This document shows, in pieces, positions 32,820 to 63,314 of a stretch of DNA of 64,000 bases (positions are counted from its first letter, which is position 1; every line of letters begins with the position of its first letter). The notes under the pieces are model-generated. The model was not told the DNA's origin, did not search any database, and was given only the letters and a program-made list of their open reading frames with translations. Source of the DNA: Moniliella sp. 'wahieum' (taxonomy: Eukaryota); assembly GCA_003971905.1 (NCBI GenBank), contig RSEE01000042.1, forward strand, positions 186,001 through 250,000. The letters are read 5' to 3'. The position numbers and the translations under genes are program-made.

Positions 32820-35800
32820 ATGGCGTACAGCCAGCGCCAGCCCGTGCCTCCGGCGGATGCCCGACGTGTATGCGCGCCCCTACGCCTATGCGCCGCCGCC
32901 TGCCGCCTCCCGCGACCAGCCCGAGCATGCCCAGTGGCCGCGCCGCCCGCCCGCGTACGCCGCGCCGCCGCCCGAGTACAGCCCCAGCGCCGCCTACCGC
33001 CCGCCGCCGCCATGCCGCGCCGCCCGTATCCGTGCGCTATGCCAGGACCGCGAGGTGGAGCCAGATGCGCATGCCGCCCCCGCCGCCCCGCCCCCTCGGT
33101 GCTGGGCCATGCGCGCGCCCCTACTCGCCTGCCGCCCTCCCCACCGCCATCCGCCCGGGCCCCGCCGCTGCCCCCGGCCCCGGCCCCATCCCGCCCCCGC
33201 CCATCGGCCCCGGTCGTCGCCGTTGCCCTCGCCAGCCCAGGCGGGCCACCACGCCCCCCTGGCACCCGGGCATGCCGCCCCGCCGCGCGCGGTACGAAGC
33301 GTCCCCTCGCCCGCCGAGGGAGGTGCCGTGGGAGGAGCGGGATGGCAGCAGCGTATGAGCGCGAGCGCGCCCAGCGGGAGTATGAGTACGAGTACGAGTA
33401 CGAGTACCAGGCCCAGGCTCAGGCTCAGGCTCATGCTCAGGCTCAAGCTCAGGCTCATGCTCACGCCCAAGCCCAAGCCCAAGCCCACGCCCACGCTCAA
33501 GCTCAAGCTCAAGCTCAAGCTCAAGCTCAAGCTCAAGCCCACGCTCAGGCTCAGGCTGCCCACGCCCAAGTCGACCCACTTCGCCACGCGTCGCCTGCAG
33601 GAACGGAGGAGCGCGAGTGGGAGTGGAAATGGGAGCGGGACAATGCGCGGCGTGGTCCCCATGCGCTGCATATGCTGCCGGCTGGGGAACGTACACGCGA
33701 ACGGCTGATGGCGTACGAGCGGGAGTATGAGCTGAACCGCCGGCAGGGCGTCGCTATGAGTCTTCTCCCGCCCTACGCTGCTCCTCCTGACTCGGACGAG
33801 AGGGAAGAGGATCGAGCGCAAGCGCAAGCGCTCGCGCATGCTCATGCTCATGCCCATGCTCAACAAGCCCATGCTCAACATGCCCACGTTCAAGCGCAGA
33901 CCCAAGCTCAAGCTCAAGCCCAAGCACACGCCCAAGCCGAAGCCCAAGCACAGGCACAGGCAGTACAAGCCGAAGCCGAAGCTCAATCTCAGGCACAAGC
34001 TCAAGCAGCTCAAGCAGCTCAAGCGGCTCAAGCAGCCGAAGCAGCTCATGCAGCTCAAGCAGCCGAAGCAGCCCATGCAGCTCAAGCACAAGCGCGAGCA
34101 CAAGCCCAAGCCCAAGCCCAGGCCCAGGCCCAGATGGACGCCGCAGCTCATGCACATGCTCAACACATGGAGGCTGTCCATGCCCCCACTGAAGCCGAAG
34201 CGGATGTCACGCCCTTGCTCATGTTCCTGCTCATGCGCATGCCCAAGGCGAAGCGCACCGCCTCCGACCAACTCCGACGATGGGTAGGATGCCTCTTCCG
34301 CTGCAATCGCCCGTGCTACGAGAGAGACCGATGGAAGGGACAGGAGCGAGCGTGGCGCGCGTGGTGGCGCCCGTGCCGGTCCATGCTACGGCAGGAGGAA
34401 GAGGGAGTGTGGAAAATGGTGTTGCGCCGGGCACGGTGGCTGCGGGTGCCGAGGCAGCTGGCACCAGCTCCTCGCCGCCTTTGCGCCCTGCCTCGGCCCA
34501 GCTCCCGGTTCCCGCCCGAGAACCGGTAGGGGTGATGAAAGAGTTGATGCAAGCCAATGTCGAAACGTGGTTGTCAATTGGTGTGTACAGTTTGGTTTCC
34601 GGCTGCTCGCTATGATATACTAACCTAACCCCCCCCCTTCCCGCGACGTTAGCCTCGGCGGCATCTACCATGGGCGGTCGCGATGGCTACGAACGGGCGA
34701 TTGAATCGATCCAGAATGCACTACAGCACGATCCCCACTCGTTGGCGGCGCATCGAGCGCTGGGCAACGTGTACCGGGACATGGAGCAGCTGGATGTGGC
34801 GGTGGACGTGCTTCAACGCGCGCTCCAGCTGGCCCCTGAGGATGGCGAGACGTGGGGGGCGCTGGGCCACTGTTACCTGCTGATGGACGACTTGCAAAAT
34901 GCGTATGCGGCGTACCAGAAAGCGCTCTACAACCTGCCCAACGCCAAAGAGCCACGGCTATGGTACGGGATTGGTATTCTGTACGACCGGTATGGTCTGT
35001 TGGACCAGGCCGAACAAGCGTTCTCGAGTGTGGTCAGCATGGACCACGACTTGACAAGGCCAACGAAATCTTTTTCCGTCTCGGGGTGATTTACAAGCAA
35101 CAGCGCAAGTTTGCCGCCAGCCTCGAGTTTCCGCTACATTCTCCCGACCCGCCCGCGCCGCTGAAACAGGCCGATATCCAGTTCCAAGTGGGCCACGTGT
35201 CGGAACTGCAGGGCGACTTGGGGGCGGCGAAAGAAGCGTACGAGCGGGTGCTTGCCGAGCTACCCCAGCACGCCAAGGTGCTGCAACAGCTGGGCGGCCT
35301 GTATCTTCACCCCGCCGCGCCATTTGCAGACCACGAGCGGCGGTGGAGTACCTGACCGTGTCGCTGGAGGGCGATGCGGCGGATGCGCAAACGTGGTACC
35401 TTCTCGGTCGCGCCTTGATGGTTCAAGAAAACTACGACAAGGCGTACGAGGCGTACCAGCAGGCCGTGTACCGCGACGGGAACCAAGCTACGTTTTGGTG
35501 TTCGATTGGGCTGCTGTACTACCGGATTGAGCAGTACGAAGATACGCTGGATGCGTTTAGTCGTGCCATTCAGCTTCACCCGGGCATCCCCGAGGTTTGG
35601 TTCAACTTGGGCTGTCTGTACGAGACGTGCAACAACCAATGGCAAGATGCGCGGGACGCCTATGTGCGCGCGGCCCAGTTGGACCCGGACAATGCAGTGA
35701 TCGAGCGCGCTTGCGCTCCTTTCTCGCCCAACCAACCCAGCCTGTGCTCCCGCCCGCCGACCACCAACGCCATTGGATGTCCCCGACGCGGTGCAGTATG

Positions 35801-42046: not shown

Positions 42047-44773
42047 GCGTTCTGTCTGTCACGTTGGGCATGATGCTGTACGGAGTGCTATTCTAGAACA
42101 GATCCTCCTCGGTTAGCGCTCTTGTCCTTCTATGTTCCGTGTGGTGTGCTCATTTCAGTGCACCCATCATGCTTTCCCCCGCATGCCCCCCCATCCAAAA
42201 TTGACATTGGCCTCGGGTCTTTGGCCGTCCCCCCTCCCCGTTGTCTGTTTCCTCTAGCTCGATGTCGTTAAACCAATAGTGGGAGTTCGACTAACGAGTC
42301 CAACGGAGGCTGTGAGATCAGGTTGCCAGATGGATCTGATCGTCAAAGGTTCCTTCATGGTCCCGCGACATCCGTAACAGTTATAACAGGCTCACGGACG
42401 CATAAGAGCTTGTTTGCCCCTCATTTCAATTTCGCCTTCCGATCCCACCCAGTATTCTCTTCCACCTTTTCGTTCCTCTGCTGTCTTAATAGAGAAGTCG
42501 TTTAACGCGGCATGTTCCCTTGTTGAAGAACTCATCAACCCCCCATGACGATATCCATGATGCCGCCGTGTGCCCACTCAGGTTGAACGTTTGAACCATT
42601 ATACTTCGATCATTTCACGCAGCCATGTTGGGTTCTTACTAGGCCTATTTGGGCCTTATTGGCATACGATCTCAGCTTTGGGTCAATAGTAGCGAACGTC
42701 CTGGTCCACCCGACTATGGAGACCGTAATGGATGCTGATGTGTTTGGGACAGTAGCATAGGCGTTCATGCGGGCGAGAGAGAGGCGCTGGTGGTCGGAAG
42801 CAGGACGAGGGCTATAGGAGAAGGCTACTAGTCGTTGGCTTACGAGTGTACGCGCGCATCAGCAGTCTTCGGGGAGCCCAGGAGCCTCGGGCTGTAGTGA
42901 GGTCGAAAGTGCACCGCGATCAGCCATGAAGCCAGTCACTGTCGCAACACCATACAAGAGTCAAGAGGACAATGCGCTGTCTTTAATTGATGGTTGTGGA
43001 CCAACGGAAGTTCTCCAAGTACTAATGTGTTCTTCTCAGCCACTCTCACCGTGGATTCCCCAATTCTAAATGTTCCATTCTCCATTCTTCGTAGCCACAG
43101 TAAATGGTTTTTGGCCACGCACGGTATGTAATTCCCATAATTGCATCCGTGGGGACAATCTTCTCGCCACTCACTCTCTCGTCTTGGTCATTGGAGACGA
43201 TTTTGACATATGACATCATACTGGGGCCGTAAGCTCTTTCAATATCAATGGGAACCATGCGACCCCTACGTCCGTGTTAATGACGTTCACACGCTTATTC
43301 CCTAACCGGTAACCCCCATCTTTTTCAAGTGCACACGCTATCCTAAGGCCTAAGGCATATAACTTAGAATCGTTTCTTCTTTGAATCTATGTGATGGTAA
43401 CGGTTGGTACGGGCACCCGCTCCAGACACTCTGTCGTTGGGCATATATGGGCATCGAACGCTCTGCCACATACAATGTGGAAGGCCGTTAGCTCGTATAG
43501 CGCCTCTTGTGTTTTCTCTTGAATCTCCGCTACGCATCCTTCCTTTGAGAATGGGAGCGCGGGACCCTTTTTCTGGACGGTTAGTTTAGGGGTATAAACC
43601 CTTGGACAGATCAATCGGTAGCTCGACATTAGGTCCTCCTCCAGATCCTGGTTGAACCGAGCGGGTGTAGAGAGGCGAGGAGAGACCCTTAGTTTTGGTG
43701 GCGCGCTGCGTGCAAAGGCCGCAGTCCAGACCTCCGAGGGGTAGGAGCCGCGTACGTAGGTAGTTAGACCAGCTGAAGGGGTCCAGGAGCTCCGAAGTTA
43801 TCCTCTGTTCTCGCAGCGTTATCACACTCGGTACGCTTAGCTGGCGGGGAACAGACAGAGTCCTAGAGAAGAGCAAGCGCTACTGATGAGGAGTAACCGC
43901 GGCTTGCAGTGCACTCGACGGAAGTCGTAAATTCGTAAGCGTAAGGGTAGTAGAAGGTGGAAGGCGAGAGAGGAACTGGTGGTATATAGTCGGGGGGAGA
44001 CCAAAGGTAGAGGACCAGGATAGTCGACAAGGACCACAGCTAGCAAGCCTTAGACATGGCTGCTTATAATACGCAGAGGGAACCAGGTCTCAAGTGCCTT
44101 CATGACAGATTGCGGGAGGGCACTTCCAGAGAGGTAAATACTAATGCACAGCGGGCCCTTGCTCTCCAAGGCGCTGCGCTGCGTAGTCGCGCAGCATCAA
44201 GGGTCTGACAAGACTGGGCGCATTGGGCACAAGCATCGTTGCCGATAACCCATGATGCGACCATGGCGGGCGTGATGATATCCGCAGCAAGGATAAGGTG
44301 TCGACTGGCTCTCTCTCGCTAATCTAACCGGACTGACGCGTGTTGGGCTGAGATGTCTACGACATGCGGGGCTCAGCGTCCGGAGATAACCGGAGCGCCC
44401 CGTAACAGCGTTACACTTTTCCTCGTTCCCGTGTTGGGATAGTGTATGTGCAGACTGGAGGGTATCTTACCACCGAGCAAGGGCCAACCAAAAGGAGATT
44501 GTGAAGACTGATGAATCGAGATAAGAGAAACTGTGATGGCCACGTACTGATAGTATAGACCGCACGAAAGCCACTAGGACTCATCGCATTCAAACTGCGA
44601 GGAGAGAAGACGAAGTATTACATGACCATTGCATCAACATTGAAGTTCAACGTTCAACACGCACCAACTAGTACGCATCACGTACGCTGCACCCCTCTTT
44701 TTCCGGCTTTTTCCAGGAGTGCGATGAATGTGCTTGTGACAGCCGCTGTGCCAAGATTTAGGCCTCAACAACG

Positions 44774-45088
44774 CCACCATAGCAATTAGTGTTAGAGGTA
44801 CTGCTAGGGTTCTCCTGCGCGGCCCTCAATGGATCGGTGACGCTCGCCTAGCCGAGCGGAAGCGTTCCGCTCGCAGGCGCGCACGCCCTGCTCGCTCCAT
44901 CTCCCTTCTCTCTCTCCTTTCTCTCCTTCCCTTCAGACGTTGCTTGAAGACTTGTGGCTTCCCACTTTGCCTTCACGCCTTGTCTGAAGGTACGCCTCTG
45001 CTTCCTTTCTTGACCTGTTGCTCCTCACAATCAGACGTTGCTTGAAGACTTGTGGCTCACCACTTTGCCTTCATGCCTTGTCTGAAGG
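44774..45088. repeat. dispersed structured element, locus A, with two tandem copies of a 58-nt hairpin (44933..44990 and 45031..45088)
   Basis: Hairpin copies are identical at 55/58 nt. Terminal inverted repeat CCTTCAGAC/GTCTGAAGG. Homologous to 53780..54000. Confidence 0.85.
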
Positions 45089-47892
45089 CTGCTTTGCAGC
45101 TGATCCATAGGATCGCGAGTGCTCCCAAGTCGCACTCTAGCAATTAGGAACCGAAAAAAACTGGACTTTCGTATCGAAAAAGCAATTCAAAATTAAAGCA
45201 GATCATATGAAGAAGGTATGAGCAGCACATGCTGAGCTTTTAAGTGTGGGCTGTAAGCTCTGTAAGGGAGAACCTGGGGGAGCCTGGTGAATCCGGTGGA
45301 TATAGGTGACTAGTGACTGTGGTGACATTTAACGACTATATAGTGACTAGTGTTGACGTTGAGCGTTGAACGTACGTGTTGAACGTTGAACATTGACTAG
45401 TGACTATAGTGACGGGTGACGTGTGACTGGTGACTAGCCTGACTGGTAGTCCTAGTTGAAAGAGTGGGGGCTAGGGTGAAGCACTAGACCGGGCGATCAA
45501 TGGGTGAGCGCGACAAATCGGTCACACCAGTGAGAGCCCAGAACCGCGGTTGCCCGTTAACTGAGAAGTAGCTACGCTACCAAGCTAAGGACGATTGCAC
45601 TGTGCAGGGTGGGAACAGCCAGAGACAGCTTCTTGTAAGCTCCTGACGCTAGTCCAACCTTCAATGCAACAGGGAGAAGAGGAACGAGGGGAACGAGGGC
45701 GCGACGGTAACCAATCCGGAGCGCGCGAGTCGCGGAACTCTATAGCCAGTTCCGCTTGCCAGCGACATGGCCGATCCAGCCATCACACCAAGTGGTGCCA
45801 CATGCCACCACACTCCAACACTAGTGCATGATGTATGGCAGGTCCCTTATAGCCACAACAAGTGCACACTTACCATATGGTCCCACGGTATACGCTCCGC
45901 CCCTCCATATAGTTGTCTTCGTTTGTCTTTTAGCAATGGTTCTTCGGTTGCCGGTAAGGCGGCAACAGGTAATGAAGGCGTAGCGCTTAGCAAGCGCTTT
46001 TATGGTAGTGTCATGGATTTTTTCTGAATCTATGAGATGGATAGACCGAGGAGGCAAGCCCATACGGGCATGCGGAGAAGAATCGGTAGTCCATCAATTA
46101 CATCAGTCTTCAAGCCTGTGAAGACTTTTGTGATGAGCGTCGTACGTTGAATACTGGGAAACGGGGCCTCTCAACGTCAAAAGCGTAGTGGTATCGTCAT
46201 CGCCACACGTCATGACGCTGTGGAGCGTGGGTAAGATTATGGCCCACTCACGCGAGGAGAGACCTGAGGCTCAGGCCTGAGGGCTTGAGGCGGGCCAGGG
46301 TAGGTTTGAGGGGCCTAGTATGCTCGAGTCCTCAGACCTGGGCCTTCGGTCTTAGGCCTCAATATTCAATGCGCTCAAGCTTCTTGAGCTCGTCAAGCTT
46401 CAAGCTTCGAGGCGCTGAAGTGTTCGATACGATATGTAGATGTTTTGATTATGTGACGGATACTAATGTCTGCGGGTCACTGGCGGACTGATCGATCATG
46501 CACATGTTGGCTGCTTTTGCCGGCATTCGCTTGAGGCCTCGCGGGGCATCACCATCCCCTGGCACAGGTGCCGAGGATTCAATATTCAAGCTTTCAAGCT
46601 CCAGGCTGCTGATGCCTGAGCCTCAGACCTTAGACTAGGGCCTTAGCCCTCTCAGGCTCTAGGCCTTCCGGATACCATGAATGGCGCCAGCCACAGTAGT
46701 AGGGTGTGTGTACACGATGAACCCATGTCGAAGATGGGGGGTTGGACGACATTGATCCGTCATCGCCCTATTGGAGACAAGAAATTTGGGAGGGTACATT
46801 CGCCCCCTGCTTCGTCAGCATGTAATATGTACTTGTTTGTCTTCTTTGACGGTATAGCCCCGACCAAAACGGTCGACACGAGGCTTGTGGACCCCACAGA
46901 GAGGGCACCAGAAAAGGCGCCGTGACCCTACTGGATTGTAATGACATGGGAGGAGGTGTGAAGCTTGAAGGGTGAGACATGAGGCCTGTGAGGCCCGAGG
47001 CGGAGAAAAGAGCCCGCTCTTCACTCTGCGGACGACATGCCGTTGACGGGGGTGAAGGTGGGATGCAGGCTACTACCCAGCCTCTTCGAGGCAGAGGCTG
47101 TGAGTTTGTGGCGTATTCAAACACCCATGGCACCCAGACTCAAGTACTCATCGATCATGAACGCATCTCAACGTAACACTCGCCCACGGCGAGTGGCGCT
47201 GGTTTCTGCACCCTGGCCAGCCAGCCTCCCAACCAGCAGGGCTTGCTTTGTTTTGTTCAAACACCCCGTCCGGCAACAGCTTCAAGCTTCATTGGCCGAA
47301 GGGTCGGGGACGCTGAGCATCGGCTTCCGCTGCGTTGAGCACGTTGAGTGCTGCCACCACCACCACCTCCCGCGTCGGCTTCGGCCTCCACCCTCCTCTG
47401 CGGCCCATTTTCATACGCATTCGCCCTCCTCCCGTCTCGCCCCACCTTGAACGAACAGGCTGCGCCCCTTCTTCCTGCCATTGCCCTGGTGGCCAACATC
47501 CTCAGCATATCAACGGATCAGTGCCTCCGTGCCTCAGCACCTCAGCACCTCAGCGCCCGCCGCCATTCAGCACGCCGGGGCCTGCAGGCAGCCCGGTTTA
47601 ACAAAGCTTACTCTCCCACTCCCGTAGAGGCGTGATCTTTCTTCCTTTTCCTTTTCCCTTCCCCTCCCCTCCCCGCCTCTCCCTCTCCCCTTCCATCTGC
47701 TCGAAAGCGCGCCAATTCAGCGCGTGCCATGTCTGTGCCCCGCACACGTTTTCCTCATCCGCCTCATTCGTTCTGAGACGTTCGTTTCTGCTTCGTAATT
47801 CACCACCGAACACCATCAATCGAAGCGGAAGAGCGTTGAGCTCAGCTCTAATCACTCCTCGCCATGCCTCCCTCCCCCACCCCCCGCTCAAC

Positions 47893-50800
47893 ATGCCCTA
47901 TCCATCTTCTTCTATCCCCTCACTCTGAACCAATTCTCCAGCCTCCTCACACTGTCTTCGATCCTCCTTCCCTCCAACGGGCCCACTACCCTGCACGACT
48001 TGCGCCCTCTCTCCTAACTTCAGCCCCGTTCCATGCCACTTCCTCAGTATACGAAAGGGATCACGGGGCAGCATTCGGCCCCAACGGCGTCGCTAGTGCA
48101 TACGGGGAGCTCCCTGTATGGCTGCGCGATCGTGAAAATTCTGCATTGGATTCTGAGGTACGTTTCTGTTCAAACTCTTTTGATGCCGATGGCCTGCCTC
48201 CGCTGCCAGTTCTGGGAGACTAGAAGTACTAGCTAGCGACTTACGGGACTGGGTACGGCTGCACACGGGAGGTGACGTGCACGACTGTATCAGTGCTGTG
48301 GCTTCTAGGGGGAACGCCAGGAGTCGTGATGCTACTTACCCGCGTGCGCGCGGCGCACGGTACCGTCTGGGGGCAGGGCAATGAGCAAAAGCACAGAAGC
48401 TGACCGTGTCTGCCTTTCTTCACTTTGTCCTTTTTCGAATGCCGTTGTTGGAACCCAACCGTCTGTTCTCCACCATTGCGTTAAACAATCATCGATCGTC
48501 GTGCTCTGATCCTCGCTTGTGACTGCGTGGGGTGACCGATACGATGTGCTTGTGGTTATGCCGTGGCGCGCATTCCCCGCCAATGCGCTTACTGCGCTTT
48601 GGACGTTTCTGGACTCGCGCCGAACGCGCTGTGTGCCACCTGCAATTCACACTTCTTTGCATGGCCGCTATACCAACGTTATCAACTCGTCACTTACTTG
48701 TCTACTATGCAACTTGCCGGAACCGAACTATTCATATGTGATTGCCTCAACCTCAGCTTCAAACCCAACATTCACCTTCTTCAACATGGTTGCCGTCGCG
48801 TCATGAGCGCATGATCTCCATGGCTGCCCCCACCACTATTTCCACTGAAGCACACGGTTAGCTCCGCTATTCCTGCCATCTCTGCCCGTCCCGTCTTGAA
48901 CCCCGACGCCCTACAGACGAGGCATGAACCGGAATTGGCTCATCTGCCAACTTCAACGACCAATGAGTATATGGCGGTGCTGCTGGCCGCCGGCAATCGT
49001 TCTCCCACCGACAGCCCCATCCATGCGTTCACTTCATCCCTGGCTGCAGACTCAAACGGGTATGGGGCAGGCCTTCCCGAGACCCAGTCTCCCTCTGCAC
49101 ATTCTCCTATGACCACTTTCTCCCGTTTTTCGTCCGCTCCCTCAGCTCCCTTACACGCAACACAAACTTCTTTCCCTTGCCTGGACTCACCCTCCCTTCC
49201 AGACCACCATGACGAGGCCAGCCCGAAATTGTCGGTCAGACCACCCATTTCACCTTTGCATGCGTATCAGTCAGCCCCCGCTCCCGGCTGGTTCCGACTT
49301 CTTCCCCTCGTACCTGGGCCGACATCGACGCTGGACCAACGAAAGTATCACCCCAAGCCATCCCCCGTCATCCTGGCTCTGGGCCTGGTCCATCGTTGGA
49401 TTCTGGTTACCTCCCGCCCCCTGCCTTGGACCTTGATCTTGCTCGTAAACTCGAAGCGGCTTCTTCCCTTACTCCCAGCCGCCCGAACTGGGCTACACCA
49501 ATCGCTCTAAGGGAACAGGTGTACTCCTTACCACATCCTACTACTAGCTCAGGAGGGAGATGCGAGGATGAATATGGGTACCAGCGTCTAAGCCATGCTC
49601 CTACGTTCCTACCTGGTTCTGCCTGCCCCCCGACCCCCCAAGGAAGCCAGCCGTGTTCGCCCGCCCTTCAACCAGAGTGGCAGGTGCGTCGAACGCGAAG
49701 CCGAAGTGCCTTAGCTCCACAACAGGCTGCCACTTATGAACAAATTCACACGTTGGCCGCCGGCCTACCCCTAGGCCCAGAGGCCAACGCTCTGATGCGC
49801 CTGGCCCAAATGGACCTGGCTTCCTCGAACGCAGATCGCCGGATAGGCATTCTGCGCCGACAGACGACAGGGGCCGTCGGCCCTAACCTACAGGGTGGGC
49901 TGTCGCGCGATCCGCAGATGGAGTACCAGGCTCAAGCTCACCAGATACGCTTTGCTTCTGCAGTACCCTCTTCTTCTGCCTCGGTCCATACATCTTTGCA
50001 ATCCTCGTTGCTCCCATCCTCCTCTTCTGGGGGTGGGATTTGGCCCTCTGTCCCCATCCCGCCCACTGTACCCTCGGCAGCCTCTTTGTGGACCGACCAA
50101 GTCCCTTCGGACCATTCTCTTGGTACTGAGTTGGACACACGTCTCCCGGTGCCGGAGGGACCTACGTTCCCCGCTTCAATGCGAGATTTGACCGCCTCTG
50201 GGCCAAGCCTAGCTGATCCAATCTCCAGTCCGACGCAAGACCAGCAGCTGACCGACCCGAGTACATTCGTCCCTGCTATCCTCCCCCATGGACAAGGCCT
50301 TCCCGGTTCTTATTATTCCCACAAGTCCGGACATGGGACAGGTCCAGCCGAGGCCCGCGCCCCGCCAACCGGACCAAGTAGTGCAGCATCGCACGGACGC
50401 GCAGGGCCGAACGTACCTACGAGCCAACGCAAAACGGAGCTGTACAAGACGGAATTATGCCGCAAATGGACCGAACGGGGGAGTTGTCGATATGGTTCCA
50501 AATGCCAGTTTGCCCATGGGGAGAGCGAGCTGCGACCTGTTGAAAGGCATCACCTCTACAAAACTCAGATATGCCGCACCTTTGCCAACACGGGGGGACA
50601 TTGCCCTTACGGGGTGAGGTGCACTTTTCTCCATCCAGACTCGGACAACGTTACCACCCAACCTTCTCTTTCCTCTTCCCTGGTCGCAACTAGCCAAGCA
50701 GGGGGTGCACAATCAGGATCAAGTGGTTCGTCCTCGGCCTCGATTCCCCCCACCCTGGTGGGGAAGAAGGTGGTGCCTGTTCTTTCATCAAGCCCAACCG

Positions 50801-51390
50801 ATCGTAAGCATTCCTCCCCTCAGGACGCGAGCCCTGCTTCGGATCATTGCACCTCCAGCCGTGAAGAAACCAAGTCGGTTCGACAAGGGGGCAATACCAA
50901 GGCACGGCAGGCACATGCACGCAAACCCAGTGGGCGTGGTGGGTCGAGTGGGAGCGGGAGTCCGTCCAATGGAACGTCTGCTGCAGCCAGTGCCACCGTC
51001 GCAGTCTCCCGGTTGCATGAGGCTCTGGCCCATGCTCGTGCACACCCGGGCTCAGTCAGTGTACCCATCGCTTCGGCCTTGAGTGAGGCCGACTCGGCTG
51101 GCTCCACCCCCGTGCCAGAAACCCCTCTCTCCACATCAGCGCCTCCGGTCGGAATCCCCCCATCCCCCATCACGCCCCTGCTCAGAGTAAGCCGGGCTAT
51201 CGCGGCCCCATTGGACGCCGGGCTCGTAACCATCCCAACTCTTGCGGGGCCAGTCCATGATCCGCGCATATGGCCGAGCCATCCGGCTCGAACTAAACTG
51301 CCGCGTCGATCCCGGCCGAGTCGCCCATTAGGGCGCCCGCGCCCAACCTGGGGGACAAGTAACCTACATCCACTTCGTCTATTTGTCTAA
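47893..51390 (+). CDS. tristetraprolin-family tandem CCCH zinc-finger mRNA-binding protein (Zfs1/Cth2-like)
   Basis: [25 protein letters not shown], an 18-aa linker, then [21 protein letters not shown] at 50443..50634. Inferred first exon 47893..48157 and intron 48158..48756. Frameshifts; ends approximate. Confidence 0.9.
48158..48756 (+). other. 599-nt phase-0 intron with a distant branch point
   Basis: GAG|GTACGT donor. GCTGAC at 48399 is followed by a pyrimidine tract, and the next AG is CCTCAG at 48755-48756. Confidence 0.7.
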
Positions 51391-51885: not shown

Positions 51886-52925
51886 TTAATCGCGCAGCAG
51901 GCCCGGACGCTTCCCCTTCCAAGGGTCCAACCCTGCTGTTAGCCTCTGCCCAGCAACGAGCGAGGACCAATCAAGCTCAGCGTCGGGCGGCGCGTTGGCC
52001 CGCGCCGCAATCATGTGCGAATTGGCCGAGTCAATCACGTTGACGGGGCAGTCGACCGAGTTGGCCAGACGACGAATCAAGTTCGCATCCTTGATGCCGC
52101 CAGAGAGACTGAATCCGTCTTCCCCGCGGAAATTCGAGTCGAGGATTTTCTTGCCGTACGAGATGGCTGGCTGAGCTGGGAAGACTTCTTGGATAAAGTC
52201 GTAGAAGCGACCGGCTCCCACATCGGTCTTGTCCGCCAACGTCATCGACTCGCCCAGCAGCTCAATCATGCCGAGGATGAATGAGTTGCCCAGCAGCTTG
52301 AACCGGGCCGCCACCTCATGGTTCCCACCAAAGTCCATAATCTTCCGACCCATGCAGGGCGAGAGGAATGGAGAGATGATGTGCTTCGAGCGCCAGTTGC
52401 CACCAGTGGCAAAGATAAGGTCCTTGGCGCGCGCCACAGGGGGCGGACCAAACGCTGGAGAAGCAACAAAGTGGCGCCGGGGAAGAGACGAAACCTTGCG
52501 CTCGATCGCGCCGGTCGTATCAGGGTAGATTGTCGAAGTGTCGGCCCAGACGGTGTGCGTGTTGCTCTGCTCGTCAGAAGCCTGGCGGTGTTTGGCATCG
52601 GCCTCGCACATCTCCCCATACACAGCCACCGCTGCCTCATCGCCGGTAAGAGAGTAAAAACGATCTGGCATGTTTGCACTACCTCGTCAATTGAGGCAGC
52701 AATGACCACCTTGCCACCTTTGGCTTCCACAGCGGCCGCGAGTTTCTCGGCCTTAGCTTTGGTGCGGTTGAAGACTTTGAGTGGTGGCAGAGGCGGCTCG
52801 GCCTGAGGCATAGCCAAGGCCAGGTTCAGCGCCATGGCCGAGCCCATGTTGCCAAGGCCAATGAAGCCGAGCTGAGTGCCCGACGCGCATGAATGCGAGA
52901 GCTTTTTCGCTGAGGACGACGACAT
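51886..52925 (-). CDS. beta-hydroxyacid dehydrogenase (6PGD/3-hydroxyisobutyrate dehydrogenase-like, NAD-binding)
   Basis: LGFIGLGNMGSAMALNL, VFNRTKAKAE, DTSTIYP, SPAFGPPPVA and FKLLGNSFI motifs. One frameshift near 52645. Confidence 0.9.
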
Positions 52926-53779
52926 GGGGAGAGAGGTGGTGGAGGCAGAGGTAGGAGGTCGGAAGGGCGGTGAGGAAGAGGGATGCCGACAGGGTTGGCT
53001 GGGCCGCCACTCTCCCGCCGGGCGCCAGTGTAGAGCGGGCCATTTCTCAAGTGTGTGCTGCTCCGAAAGGGGGGGGGACACTGCCCTGGCGCTGGCAAAG
53101 CAGAGCCGCGGGATTTACACTGCCGCTGTGCGTCCTAGGTCATGGATCCTTGACTGTCCCCGTGCGGTCGTTGGAGGGCACACGAGGTTCCTTTGACGCG
53201 TATGACGTCCACGGCCGAGCGAGAAGAAGCGCACGGGCCAGCGGCATGTGTGTGTCGATGCGCATGCCAGGACCTGAGGCACAGGAACAACACGAATGGG
53301 CCACATATCATAGCCACGCCAGGTTACCGGTTACATTTACACCTGCCACACCCGCCCTGTTGTTTGTCTGCAACCATTGCTTAGGCCCGGGAAGATCGAC
53401 AGATATGTTCAAGAAGATACATGATGTTAATGAAGAGGCATGTAAGGATGTGCATGTGGGCGTCCGCAGTCTGTCTTTGTGAACTAAAAGTCGGCTGTCG
53501 CTATTAGTCATTGATTGTTTCCCCCATGTATGGAAATGCCCCGAGAGCAAGGGAGAGCCAAGGGGTGTAACTAACGTGGTACTGATACAGCGTCAGATCC
53601 TCCCTTGTTTAGGCCCCGCGGTTCCTGGACTTATGACGAGACCGCGGCGGGTATATTAAGTGTAAGTTTTGTTGGCGTATATGCGATCATGGATTCACTA
53701 CCACCAGAGAAAGATGACGCGGCAGAAGCATATATACACTGCTATAGTATATATATAGTTCGGCCGACCATTAACATAA

Positions 53780-54000
53780 CCGCCATAGCAAAACGGAAGT
53801 GCTATCATAGAGTTTTCCCCTGCACGGCCCTCGAGCTTCAAGCTTCACTTTGATCGCGGTGACGCTCGCTTCCCCAGGCGGAAGCGCTCGCAGGCTGCGC
53901 ATCCCCTGCTTCTCCGCCCCCCTTCTCTGTTCTCCTTCCCTTTTCAGACGTGCATGAAGGTTTGTGGCTCACCCTTTTACCTTCACGGCTTTTCTGAAAG
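53780..54000. repeat. dispersed structured element, locus B (third hairpin copy at 53942..53999)
   Basis: Colinear blocks shared with locus A: CCATAGCAA, CCTGC(A/G)CGGCCCTC, CGGTGACGCTCGC, GCGGAAGCG, GCTCGCAGG, a CT tract and TTCAGACGT...TCTGAA. Confidence 0.85.
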
Positions 54001-54404
54001 CGAAGCAACCCGCTTTTCACCGCCTATAGTAAGCGTTCGTGAAACTGGGGGGTATTTCGTTTTTCAATCAAGGCCCATGTCCGGGCTTCATCTGAATCTC
54101 TCTGTACATCGGACGCCATCCCCCCTGCTCACGCTGCCCCCCGAGCCCACCTATTGACGGCAACGAAGCTCAAGCAATACGACGCCTACATGGCCAGTCG
54201 ATCCACATTCTTTTGCGGCCCTCCTGGCCAAACGCGTTGCGCACTCGACTGGTACAAATGAAATTCGTTCCAGCTATACGACAGGCGTGCCTACTCTTTT
54301 CACAGAACGCAGCGCTCAGCCGCTCTACGTTCAATGTAAAATCGTTCTGAATGCTTGACAGGAGACACTCTGGACATAACATGTCATGGTGAGGTTTGTA
54401 TAGC

Positions 54405-57045
54405 TTACACCAAGCCAATGGTGCACACACACCGGAACCGATTCGCCGAGGTGGAAGTGACCGAGGCCACACTCCCTTCGGCCAGGAATACAGTGCCAAG
54501 GAGCGAAGAGGATTTCCACCCCAGGATTGAGAGAGCGTAAACTGATCCGGCCCCGAGCTGAACCGTGTCAGCCCGTTTCCCAAGGGCGAGAAACAGTGGA
54601 TGGAGAAGTAGGCGCGCACAGATCGACGCATGTCCAAGTACGGTTTAGGGGGCGCAATGCCGGGCACCCACTCGGTCATGGGATCAAACGGCACCGAGGC
54701 CGCTGCCTCGGCCGCCTCAAGGCCATCCGGCCCGGGAACGGGGGGACAGACACGCGGGGCAAATCTTCGTTGGGGTTTTGACGGTGAAGGTAAATGCCAA
54801 GCTGGATTCCCTTGCTCTTGTGGACCTTGACCACGTACAGGTTCCACCAACTTCCACCATAAAAGAAGGTAGGGGAGTGCAACTTTGTTCGCTCCGTCAT
54901 GCGATCAATCGAGAAAAATTCGACTCCAAACCGCATGGGTTCGAAAGGCACCCATACCTCTGTCGGAGATTGGGCCACAGTAGGACTGATGGGCCGCCGC
55001 CAAGGACGATCTTCCTCTTCTTGGGATCATCATCAGGTGAATGTGGCGCGTGTTCCCTGGCTCGTATGATGAGTTCATGGCGGCGAAGCGAAAGATCTCG
55101 GTGGACGGGAGAAGGAGCGGGTTGAGCCAGAGGCACGGGGATGGCCAACAAGTCTCTTTGAGCTGCCAAACCCGAAGCGCCCATGCTTGCCCCCGCGGCT
55201 GCATCCGCGAAAGTGTCATCCAAATCCACTTGAAACGTACTCAAGCCCCCACTCAAGGTCGTTATAGAGGTCACCAATTGCCCCAAGCTGTCACCCGATT
55301 TGGCCGTCTCATCTTCTGGAACAGGGAAGAAGCGCCGGTCGAACTGCAAAGTGGATGTAGAAGCCTGCGGTTGATCCGCAAAGTCGGAAAGGGGCACGCT
55401 CAAACCTGTTGTTCGATCTGGATCGGCCAAACATGAGCGGAGACGCATTCCCTCCCACAAGGCACGCTGAACAACCGACTCTGGTGTATAAGTTGTGCCT
55501 GTAAGGGGGCACATATCCTCCGAAATTTCCGAGAGTTGAGGAAAGGACATGTGGCTGTAGTACACCCCATTGGAAAGCAGTTGTTCGTACTCGATCTCGT
55601 CGGGATCTTCCTCCTCTTCATCAGGACTCTCCATTCCCATGGAGGAGCGCTGCAATGCCAGGTAGTCACGCTTTCCCCTTCGACGCCAATTTACCACATC
55701 GCGGGCCACATTGTAACGATCCCACTCGGATGGGACGTAAAACGAGTCAGAGGAAATGAGAGTGCGGATGGTACTGGAGGGAAGACCAAGCAGGGGGTCA
55801 AAGGACCAAACCACGGGGCGAGGTGGCCGGGGAGATACAGATGCCGCTTTCCCCCCCAAATTCCCCCGGTCCAACATGGGTGGTGGTGACGTGGGCAGCG
55901 AATCGGACCTGCGGCGGGAGGAAAGCGTAGAAGACGGAGACAGGGAGCGAGGAGAGCGTGGTGGCACTTGTGGGTCAAGAAGGGGGTACTGTGTATGCAC
56001 CTCACGTTCCCAGGCCAACACATCACTTCCCCATCGGGCGAACCAGCAGAGGGAAGCTTCGCGGACTTTTTCGCTAGCAGGACCATAGAAGAGCGGCCCA
56101 GTGGGGTACGACACAGGTGGGGGTGGTCTGGCAGATGGGGAAGAGAGTTCTTGCCAGCCTTCGAGGGGGATGGAAAGCTCATCGACCGACTCTTCTCTTC
56201 ATCCTCCCACAGTACTGAGTGGGGTGGGATGCCTAAACCAGAGCCAAATCGCGCATAAGCCACTGCCGAATAGGGTGTGAAACTAGCGAGAATGAGGGTG
56301 AGAGCAATCGAGGTGACAGACGGTATAGAGAAGTAAGTGGAGGTCGCGAGGAGCGACATGAGGAAACGGGGTGAAGCCCAGTGGATAGCGGGGGGTGTCT
56401 CGCCAAACACGTCGGCCTCAGGTGGGATTGGGCTTCCTCTTGTGTAGAACCAAGAGGATAAGGGAATGCGGTGCCCAAAGGGCAGTCCGATCGTGGGTTG
56501 GACCATCCGGGCAGTCGGAGATTGGGTGCACAGCCATAAAGCGTGGCCAGACAGAACTCCCAAGCTGGGCGGGACATGTTGGGATCGGGGATATGGATGG
56601 GAATGCGGGGGCGCTCATCGGAGTACGCAGCGGAACGACCCTCGAGGAAGGCGGGGCAGAAGAGAGTATTGAAGAAACCGGCCTGGACGAGGATGAGGCG
56701 GTGGGTGTTGTACTCGCGTCCAAAGACTACAAGGGTTAAGTCGGAGGTGGAGGAGGCGCGTCCGTCGACAGAAGTGCCAAGAACCTCGGCAAAGTGGGAG
56801 AGGAGGCCGAGGGAGGCAAGGTGTCGCTGGGAGCCGGGATCCGCGTCAGTGCCAGCCACACCGCCCGCGCCAGCCTCAGTACCAGCACCAACACCAGCAA
56901 CAGCACAGCACAGCACCAGCACCAGCACCAGCACTAAAGCCAAGGACGCGGCCAAGGTGGATCCTCGGACACGCGCGCCATGGAGCAGAAGCGGCCGGGC
57001 GCGCGGGTGGGGGGAGATGGTGGGGGCAACGCCAGCGGCCGGCAT
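54405..57045 (-). CDS. BTB/POZ-domain protein with a C-terminal MATH-like domain (probable Cul3 adaptor)
   Basis: SDLTLVVFGREYNTHRLILVQAGFF...WEFCLATLYG (BTB), SDSFYVPSEWDRY and PMRFGVEF...FYGGSWWNLYV...LGIYLHRQ...FTLSQSWG. Frameshifts present. Confidence 0.82.
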
Positions 57046-57367
57046 TGGCCGCGGCCTGTCCAAGTGGGGCTAGCGTGGCGGACTGTGATATGTGATGTGC
57101 GTGTGATGCATCGGTCTTGAACAGTTCACCGCCCCGCCGCATTTAACAGCCCATTCCCCCCGCCAGCTGTGGCAACCACATGTTTGCTCCACCGGGGTCC
57201 TCTCTTCACTAGAACTCCTCCATGCCGCCGACCTATATTCGCCGACACAAGGCAAGCACGTTAACTAGAGCGCCATTCCTATCTTCTAGTCATTACACCA
57301 ACTCCCCAACACAGCCCTAGGCAAATCAAGCATGTCAGTCGTACTCGGTGCGCAGTACAACATGCAC

Positions 57368-63221: not shown

Positions 63222-63314
63222 GCTCCGATCTTCCAGTGGTTAGGAAGTGGGATTTTGAATAGGCACCTGTCAAGACATCTTCCCGAAACCTGGGTTCGAA
63301 TCCCAGTTGGAGCT
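63222..63314 (+). tRNA. tRNA-Gln(UUG) with a 21-nt canonical intron (63259..63279)
   Basis: Acceptor stem GCTCCGA/TTGGAGC, D arm TTCC-AGTGGTTA-GGAA, anticodon stem TGGGA/TCCCG with TTG at 63255-63257, and T arm CTGGG-TTCGAAT-CCCAG. Confidence 0.93.

Follow-up and report, generated by a model that had tools for sequence, protein, structure and literature searches.

An old and a young leftover of what is probably one Ty1/copia-type retrotransposon lineage, 9 kb apart in Moniliella sp. 'wahieum'

Two stretches of a Moniliella sp. 'wahieum' contig, lying in the same orientation, can be folded into similar hairpins, and some stem pairs differ between them on both sides. Is this a structure kept by selection while its sequence drifted, or what the history of a repeat would leave behind? 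The window analysed here (64,000 nt, positions 186001-250000 of the contig called C42) belongs to a genome of 69.5 Mb in 223 contigs. A second contig, C41, parallels C42 at roughly 90% identity in intergenic DNA; on that likeness it serves here, for comparison, as a putative sister haplotype or subgenome of C42. The features that bear on the question are as follows (all positions are those of the window).

44785-44789, + strand: left copy of a 5-bp target-site duplication, ATTAG (sequence)
44790-45142, + strand: young solo LTR of 353 bp, two-hairpin form (TG...CA ends read directly)
44930-44990, + strand: first hairpin unit of the young LTR (-27.5 kcal/mol, z -5.14)
45031-45088, + strand: second hairpin unit of the young LTR, 98-bp period (repeat comparison and folding)
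45143-45147, + strand: right copy of the 5-bp target-site duplication, ATTAG (sequence)
49396-51390, + strand: host gene for a tandem CCCH zinc finger protein (PF00642, two stretches, E 2.7e-19)
51886-53081, - strand: host gene for an NAD-binding dehydrogenase of 3-hydroxyisobutyrate/6-phosphogluconate type, in two ORF pieces (PF03446, E 1.9e-11; PF14833, E 1.2e-5, under its cut-off)
53780-53791, + strand: flank motif in common with host DNA at 44774-44785, outside the LTR (sequence match)
53795-54000, + strand: probable old relic, without ends, of a single-hairpin LTR of a copia-type lineage (homology to the first ~200 nt of the LTR)
53836-53847, + strand: heptamer-type expansion CTTCA-AG-CTTCA, within a 17-nt insertion that other family LTRs lack
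53941-54000, + strand: hairpin unit with changed pairs (alignment, folding)

The reading preferred here, at a probability of roughly 0.85, is that 53795-54000 is a decayed Ty1/copia-type LTR remnant predating the split of C41 and C42, and that the same lineage left the solo LTR at 44790-45142 much later. An initial annotation of the window had described 53780-54000 as a diverged, same-orientation homolog of 44774-44990, which the alignment confirms for the LTR part; the first 16 bases (44774-44789) are host flank and not repeat.

That annotation had also counted the hairpin at 53941-54000 as a third copy, a number far too low: a 25-nt hairpin core has 182 matches in the genome at one mismatch or fewer and none in the control, and in searches with either locus all 40 of the 40 scored sequences match, as a dispersed family would. 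One member (L031) is a full element, with paired LTRs ~4.25 kb apart, a GTCCA target duplication, a GGTTATG.. site directly downstream of the left LTR, and, ahead of the 3′ LTR, a G-rich tract; further LTR pairs ~4.2-4.3 kb apart are found on four other contigs (C24, C49, C15, and C71). The two long internal ORFs of this element matched 0 Pfam families. The element, young and 4.6 kb in size, is repeat-rich in these ORFs (L031:1916-5166), and only its first ~600 nt are in common with the RT-bearing relative.

This relative is a sister lineage (L092/L095) with the same LTR ends, primer site, and tract as the young family, along with ~600 nt of its internal sequence. Its domains, spread over several frames, are zf-CCHC, Pol_BBD, gag_pre-integrase, rve, and RVT_2, that is, a zinc knuckle, a protease-type barrel, pre-integrase, integrase, and RVT_2, in copia order. 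The LTR lineage is thus of Ty1/copia type, as judged from the protease-integrase-RT order predicted in these related elements. The genome is rich in such elements, with at least 150 RVT_2 matches (all 150 scored, the best 150 of 204 candidates). LTRs with one and with two hairpin units occur in both lineages, with the same 98-bp period. In the element at L032:1981-6340 the left LTR has one unit and the right LTR two, a mixture expected from loss or gain of direct repeats in reverse transcription or recombination. Older single-hairpin solo LTRs have 5-bp duplications of their own (CATAC in L085, GCTTC in L069), and a 24-mer of the older type has 78 genome matches, among them the C41 counterpart of the relic. 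A literature search, made outside repeat databases and most subscription papers, found no description of this LTR family or hairpin.

The copy at 44790-45142 is a young solo LTR, inserted on C42 only. It has the termini and the target duplication, its counterparts stand as the ends of full elements, and there is an empty allele: on C41 its flanks meet over a single ATTAG. It is 93-98% identical to all 39 of the 39 non-self family matches (among the best 40 of 409 candidates scored). Some distance downstream, ~380 bp at about 45440-45820 are present on C42 and absent from C41; part of this stretch recurs in another locus (L099), and it is probably another repeat insertion.

The stretch at 53795-54000 is of a different kind. 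It is 76-78% identical to family copies (over query positions 98-242), lacks the last ~55 nt of the LTR, and on neither C42 nor C41 has a recognisable TG start, TG/CA ends, or target duplication, so that homology is what its LTR origin rests on. It is therefore filed, by its sequence, as a putative LTR fragment and not as an intact solo LTR. Its diagnostic bases are in common with the older single-hairpin solo LTRs L085 and L069. It carries 7- and 17-nt insertions; the CTTCA-AG-CTTCA unit within the latter also occurs in the old copy L134, and related words are found at six places in the window (nine strand matches, 0.08 expected). A 29-mer of its own has just three matches within three mismatches (the relic site, C41, and one family copy), so that no sister copies of its sublineage were found.

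The relic is present at the matching site on C41. It therefore predates the C41/C42 split, the LTR at 44790-45142 postdates it, and the two are not the ends of one element; they are independent insertions. The CCCH-finger and dehydrogenase genes lie between the two loci, which had been read as direct repeats bracketing them. That arrangement does not hold up, since the young LTR is flanked by a target duplication of its own and C41 lacks it, though carrying the relic and its flanking DNA. A comparison with sister DNA, proposed at the time as a check for insertion at either locus, finds one at 44790-45142; the relic is on both contigs. A composite element carrying both genes was also considered, and is ruled out by the same target duplication and empty site.

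Between C41 and C42 the relic has ~12 substitutions in 190 aligned bases (about 6%), plus indels of 19, 5, and 1 nt; the flanks differ by about 7% and 4% (all hand counts). C41 has lost the 19 nt and C42 the 5 nt. The two contigs differ in other ways nearby: C41 has an insertion of ~220 bp (in L036) at a site matching window position 53385, upstream of the dehydrogenase gene, and C42 alone has 34 nt of AT-rich, near-palindromic sequence at 53724-53757. On the other side of the relic is a gene on the - strand (54170-57063), whose first ORF we take to resemble BTB/POZ; Pfam assigned no family to this gene. Elsewhere in the window, a long array of 6-, 9-, and 12-nt units (33390-34260) probably codes for an Ala/Gln/His-rich tract.

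The host flank directly 5′ of the two copies is itself alike, with 21 of 26 bases identical (44761-44785 vs. 53768-53791; on C41, L035:4278-4303). Could the relic then be an ancient local copy of a flank-plus-LTR junction like that at 44774-44990? This would explain the motif, and the motif is not a common word: its 12-mer occurs 15 times in the genome vs. 18 in the control and stands beside no other LTR start in 159 loci, and a 19-nt degenerate pattern made from both flanks has exact matches at only three site pairs genome-wide (6 of 10 matches). The homology between the flanks stops beyond the motif, however, and the motif 5′ of the young LTR is host DNA, present at the C41 empty site. C41 lacks the young LTR, which is 97-98% identical to young copies, whereas the relic is older than the split and about 23% diverged; a local duplication would need a precise loss on C41 together with conversion on C42, or else a second insertion into the same place, and is very unlikely. 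The third site pair with the flank word (C35/C46) has no LTR beside it, and in a metagenome scan all eight of the eight matches share the 19-nt pattern alone and are treated as chance. A target-site preference for the motif was considered and rejected, as the word is not enriched and was seen beside no LTR start but these. The LTR-remnant reading leaves the motif unexplained; chance, with selection by the reader who made the initial annotation, or an old local duplication are possible sources.

A further alternative would run the other way: 53795-54000 might be a host RNA sequence that was captured into an LTR, as in Cassandra- or Helenus-like elements. It is a single-copy sequence type, without LTR ends, and folds well. 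Yet its match to the LTR takes in almost all of the 5′ 200 nt, and it carries the diagnostic bases of an old sublineage and has heptamer insertions that resemble those of other old copies. An Rfam gathering scan of the window placed no RNA family at either locus, and ARAGORN reported nothing at either; a host donor is accordingly the least credible of the alternatives, to be thought extremely improbable. The same Rfam result disfavours the earlier proposal of a stand-alone functional host RNA or ssDNA element. The sole Rfam match in the window is a tRNA at 63222-63314, of 93 nt against a model of 71 positions, and possibly intron-bearing; ARAGORN in its bacterial setting called no tRNA there.

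The changes that drew attention to the hairpin are present as first described. With respect to 44930-44990, the outer C-G pair has become T53942-A53999, and the inner stem TGAAGAC/GCCTTCA has become TGAAGGT (53955-53961)/ACCTTCA (53979-53985), with a second double-sided change at T53961-A53979. A G53960-C53980 pair stands where the young LTR has an A/C mismatch. This had been called a repair, and the G-C pairing is indeed there; the change may have run either way, since L085 also has G at this site and GAAGG/CCUUC is the pairing in the RT-bearing lineage. In other copies either half of the inner double change is also found alone. A broken pair, C53949/T53992, had been overlooked; on C42 a loop-proximal pair, T53965/C53974, is broken as well.

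The relic hairpin is more stable than expected from its composition (z -3.46 on the + strand, 1 of 200 shuffles as good; -4.33 on the - strand), as is the first hairpin of the young LTR (44925-44995: z -5.14 on +, -6.44 on -). Its predicted fold, at -22.9 kcal/mol, is weaker than those of family copies (-27.5 and -30.4 kcal/mol), and taken as a whole the 231-nt stretch shows no unusual stability (z -1.27; 24 of 200 shuffles did equally well). The C41 and C42 hairpins have ten changes in common, one of which breaks pairing while two leave G-U on the + strand. The relic's changes preserve pairs more than those in most decayed copies do, and most keep + strand pairing (hand count). C-to-T and G-to-A make up six of the ten shared changes, and with these two types a G-C pair that is hit twice will always look compensated; the chance of two rescued pairs comes to about 3-7%, by a post hoc hand estimate.

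Do the many other copies speak for a conserved fold? Of 30 older-type loci fetched, 26 were aligned; for the covariation set of 26 rows, six hairpin-deleted or unalignable loci (L130, L146, L148, L150, L153, and L157) were dropped, which biases the set toward structure, and six other copies were added. In it, 86.3% of 561 cells pair, and three pairs are changed on both sides vs. 2.6 in shuffles (264 of 500 shuffles reaching that number). The corresponding values are 18 of 500 for cells and 29 of 500 for the score, which are non-significant by the tool's calibration; most of the rows are neutral relics. In a 9-row set, shuffles equalled the observed value 34 times in 500 for pairs, and 0 times in 500 for cells as for the score; its C41 and C42 rows are non-independent, and two of its rows were misaligned. 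Many further copies break or delete stems, by scattered changes and deletions; random stem-breaking substitutions are what the initial annotation had itself named as speaking against its reading.

A better case for the fold can be made within the LTR. The RT-bearing lineage has a hairpin of like layout (CUUCA/UGAAG, GC/GC, GAAGG/CCUUC), with z of -4.06 on + and -1.97 on - in L092, and of -1.96 on + and -1.66 on - in L118. The stems shared with this lineage are nearly invariant, so that conservation of sequence and of structure cannot be told apart in them; RNAalifold across both lineages set the stem arms out of register, and the weak, different fold that it returned is uninformative. A conserved fold, as first proposed, is plausible as part of the LTR, since the related lineage keeps a like + strand hairpin; as a signal of covariation above control in the 26 copies it does not stand.

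Might the relic have been kept by the host all the same, as a cis-element of a divergent dehydrogenase promoter or of the convergent upstream gene's 3′ end, with its hairpin under host selection? It is intergenic, beside the 5′ end of the dehydrogenase gene, and present on both sister contigs; the hairpin still folds (z -3.5 and -3.7) and is identical at 58 of 60 positions between them (3% difference, by hand count, with too few changes to separate it from the flanks). Its overall divergence nevertheless equals that of the flanks, both contigs have lost bases within it, the loop-proximal pair is broken on C42, and the fold is weaker than in family copies. Such an exaptation is quite unlikely, and nothing indicates a present host function of the relic.

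On the preferred reading, that of a decayed remnant and a young solo LTR, the relic would have been inserted before C41 and C42 diverged, and would then have lost its ends and gained its insertions. Both loci may have been left by LTR-LTR recombination, after which copies would decay neutrally. Some of the double-sided changes would date from the active life of a sublineage now extinct, and the others would be due to C-to-T/G-to-A drift, which can turn a doubly hit G-C pair into A-T. Within the LTR the hairpin falls in the 3′ half, a short way upstream of the primer site; from this analysis it is probably a + strand RNA cis-element of the retrotransposon leader, where it might act in transcription, packaging, or the start of the minus strand.

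The spacer between hairpin units (44990-45035; also in L109, L118, L120, L123, and L127) is intron-like in both lineages, with the form GT(A/G)CGC...AG. A pyrimidine tract and CAG precede the hairpin unit, a branch-like word is found in one lineage only, and the outer stem pairs the acceptor-like site (pyrimidine tract/CAG) with the donor-like AAG|GT site of the two-unit LTR. A splice-related role of the hairpin, read from these motifs, is only a guess. Carried further, the hairpin might be a conserved + strand RNA switch that loops out a 53-nt mini-exon and tunes splicing of the leader, with 53941-54000 as a third, extinct sublineage with compensated stems, possibly a regulatory piece kept by the host beside the dehydrogenase promoter; this is a long shot.

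As it stands, the finding is an ordinary one: a single retrotransposon lineage has left two traces 9 kb apart, one old and one young. It also serves as a caution, since C-to-T/G-to-A drift and the history of the element can give rise to two compensatory pairs when repeat copies are compared. Should the hairpin prove to govern how the element's RNA is spliced or packaged, it would be a small testable cis-element of an unnamed fungal copia lineage.

Several known systems can be compared. Cassandra, Helenus, and Ajax are described as non-autonomous LTR elements with LTRs derived from small RNAs (PMC10886601, in part). The LTR here has no tRNA- or 5S-like match (Rfam, ARAGORN), unlike theirs; as in these elements, the LTR is structured, and the copy of the young family that was scanned lacks pol. 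The 5′ region of Ty1 and retroviral RNA contains hairpins with roles in reverse transcription, dimerisation, and packaging (PMC3592414, in part). The hairpin here, as known from sequence and predicted fold, would be similarly placed, lying within the LTR a short way 5′ of the primer site; it differs in that an LTR holds either one or two such units, at a 98-bp period. The candidate primer site, which begins GGTTATG directly after the LTR, presumably resembles the copia/Ty5 site, and this motif is the likeness to the half-tRNA-primed Drosophila copia and yeast Ty5. Priming at an internal site is described for copia (PMC3592414, in part). A further comparison is with the Ty1/copia elements (Pseudoviridae) as a group. 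The relic, without ends and duplication, is unlike their solo LTRs; 44790-45142 is like them in its TG...CA ends, 5-bp target duplication, and empty allele, and the lineage as a whole resembles them in having full elements with a primer site and polypurine tract, and a relative with protease-integrase-RT order.
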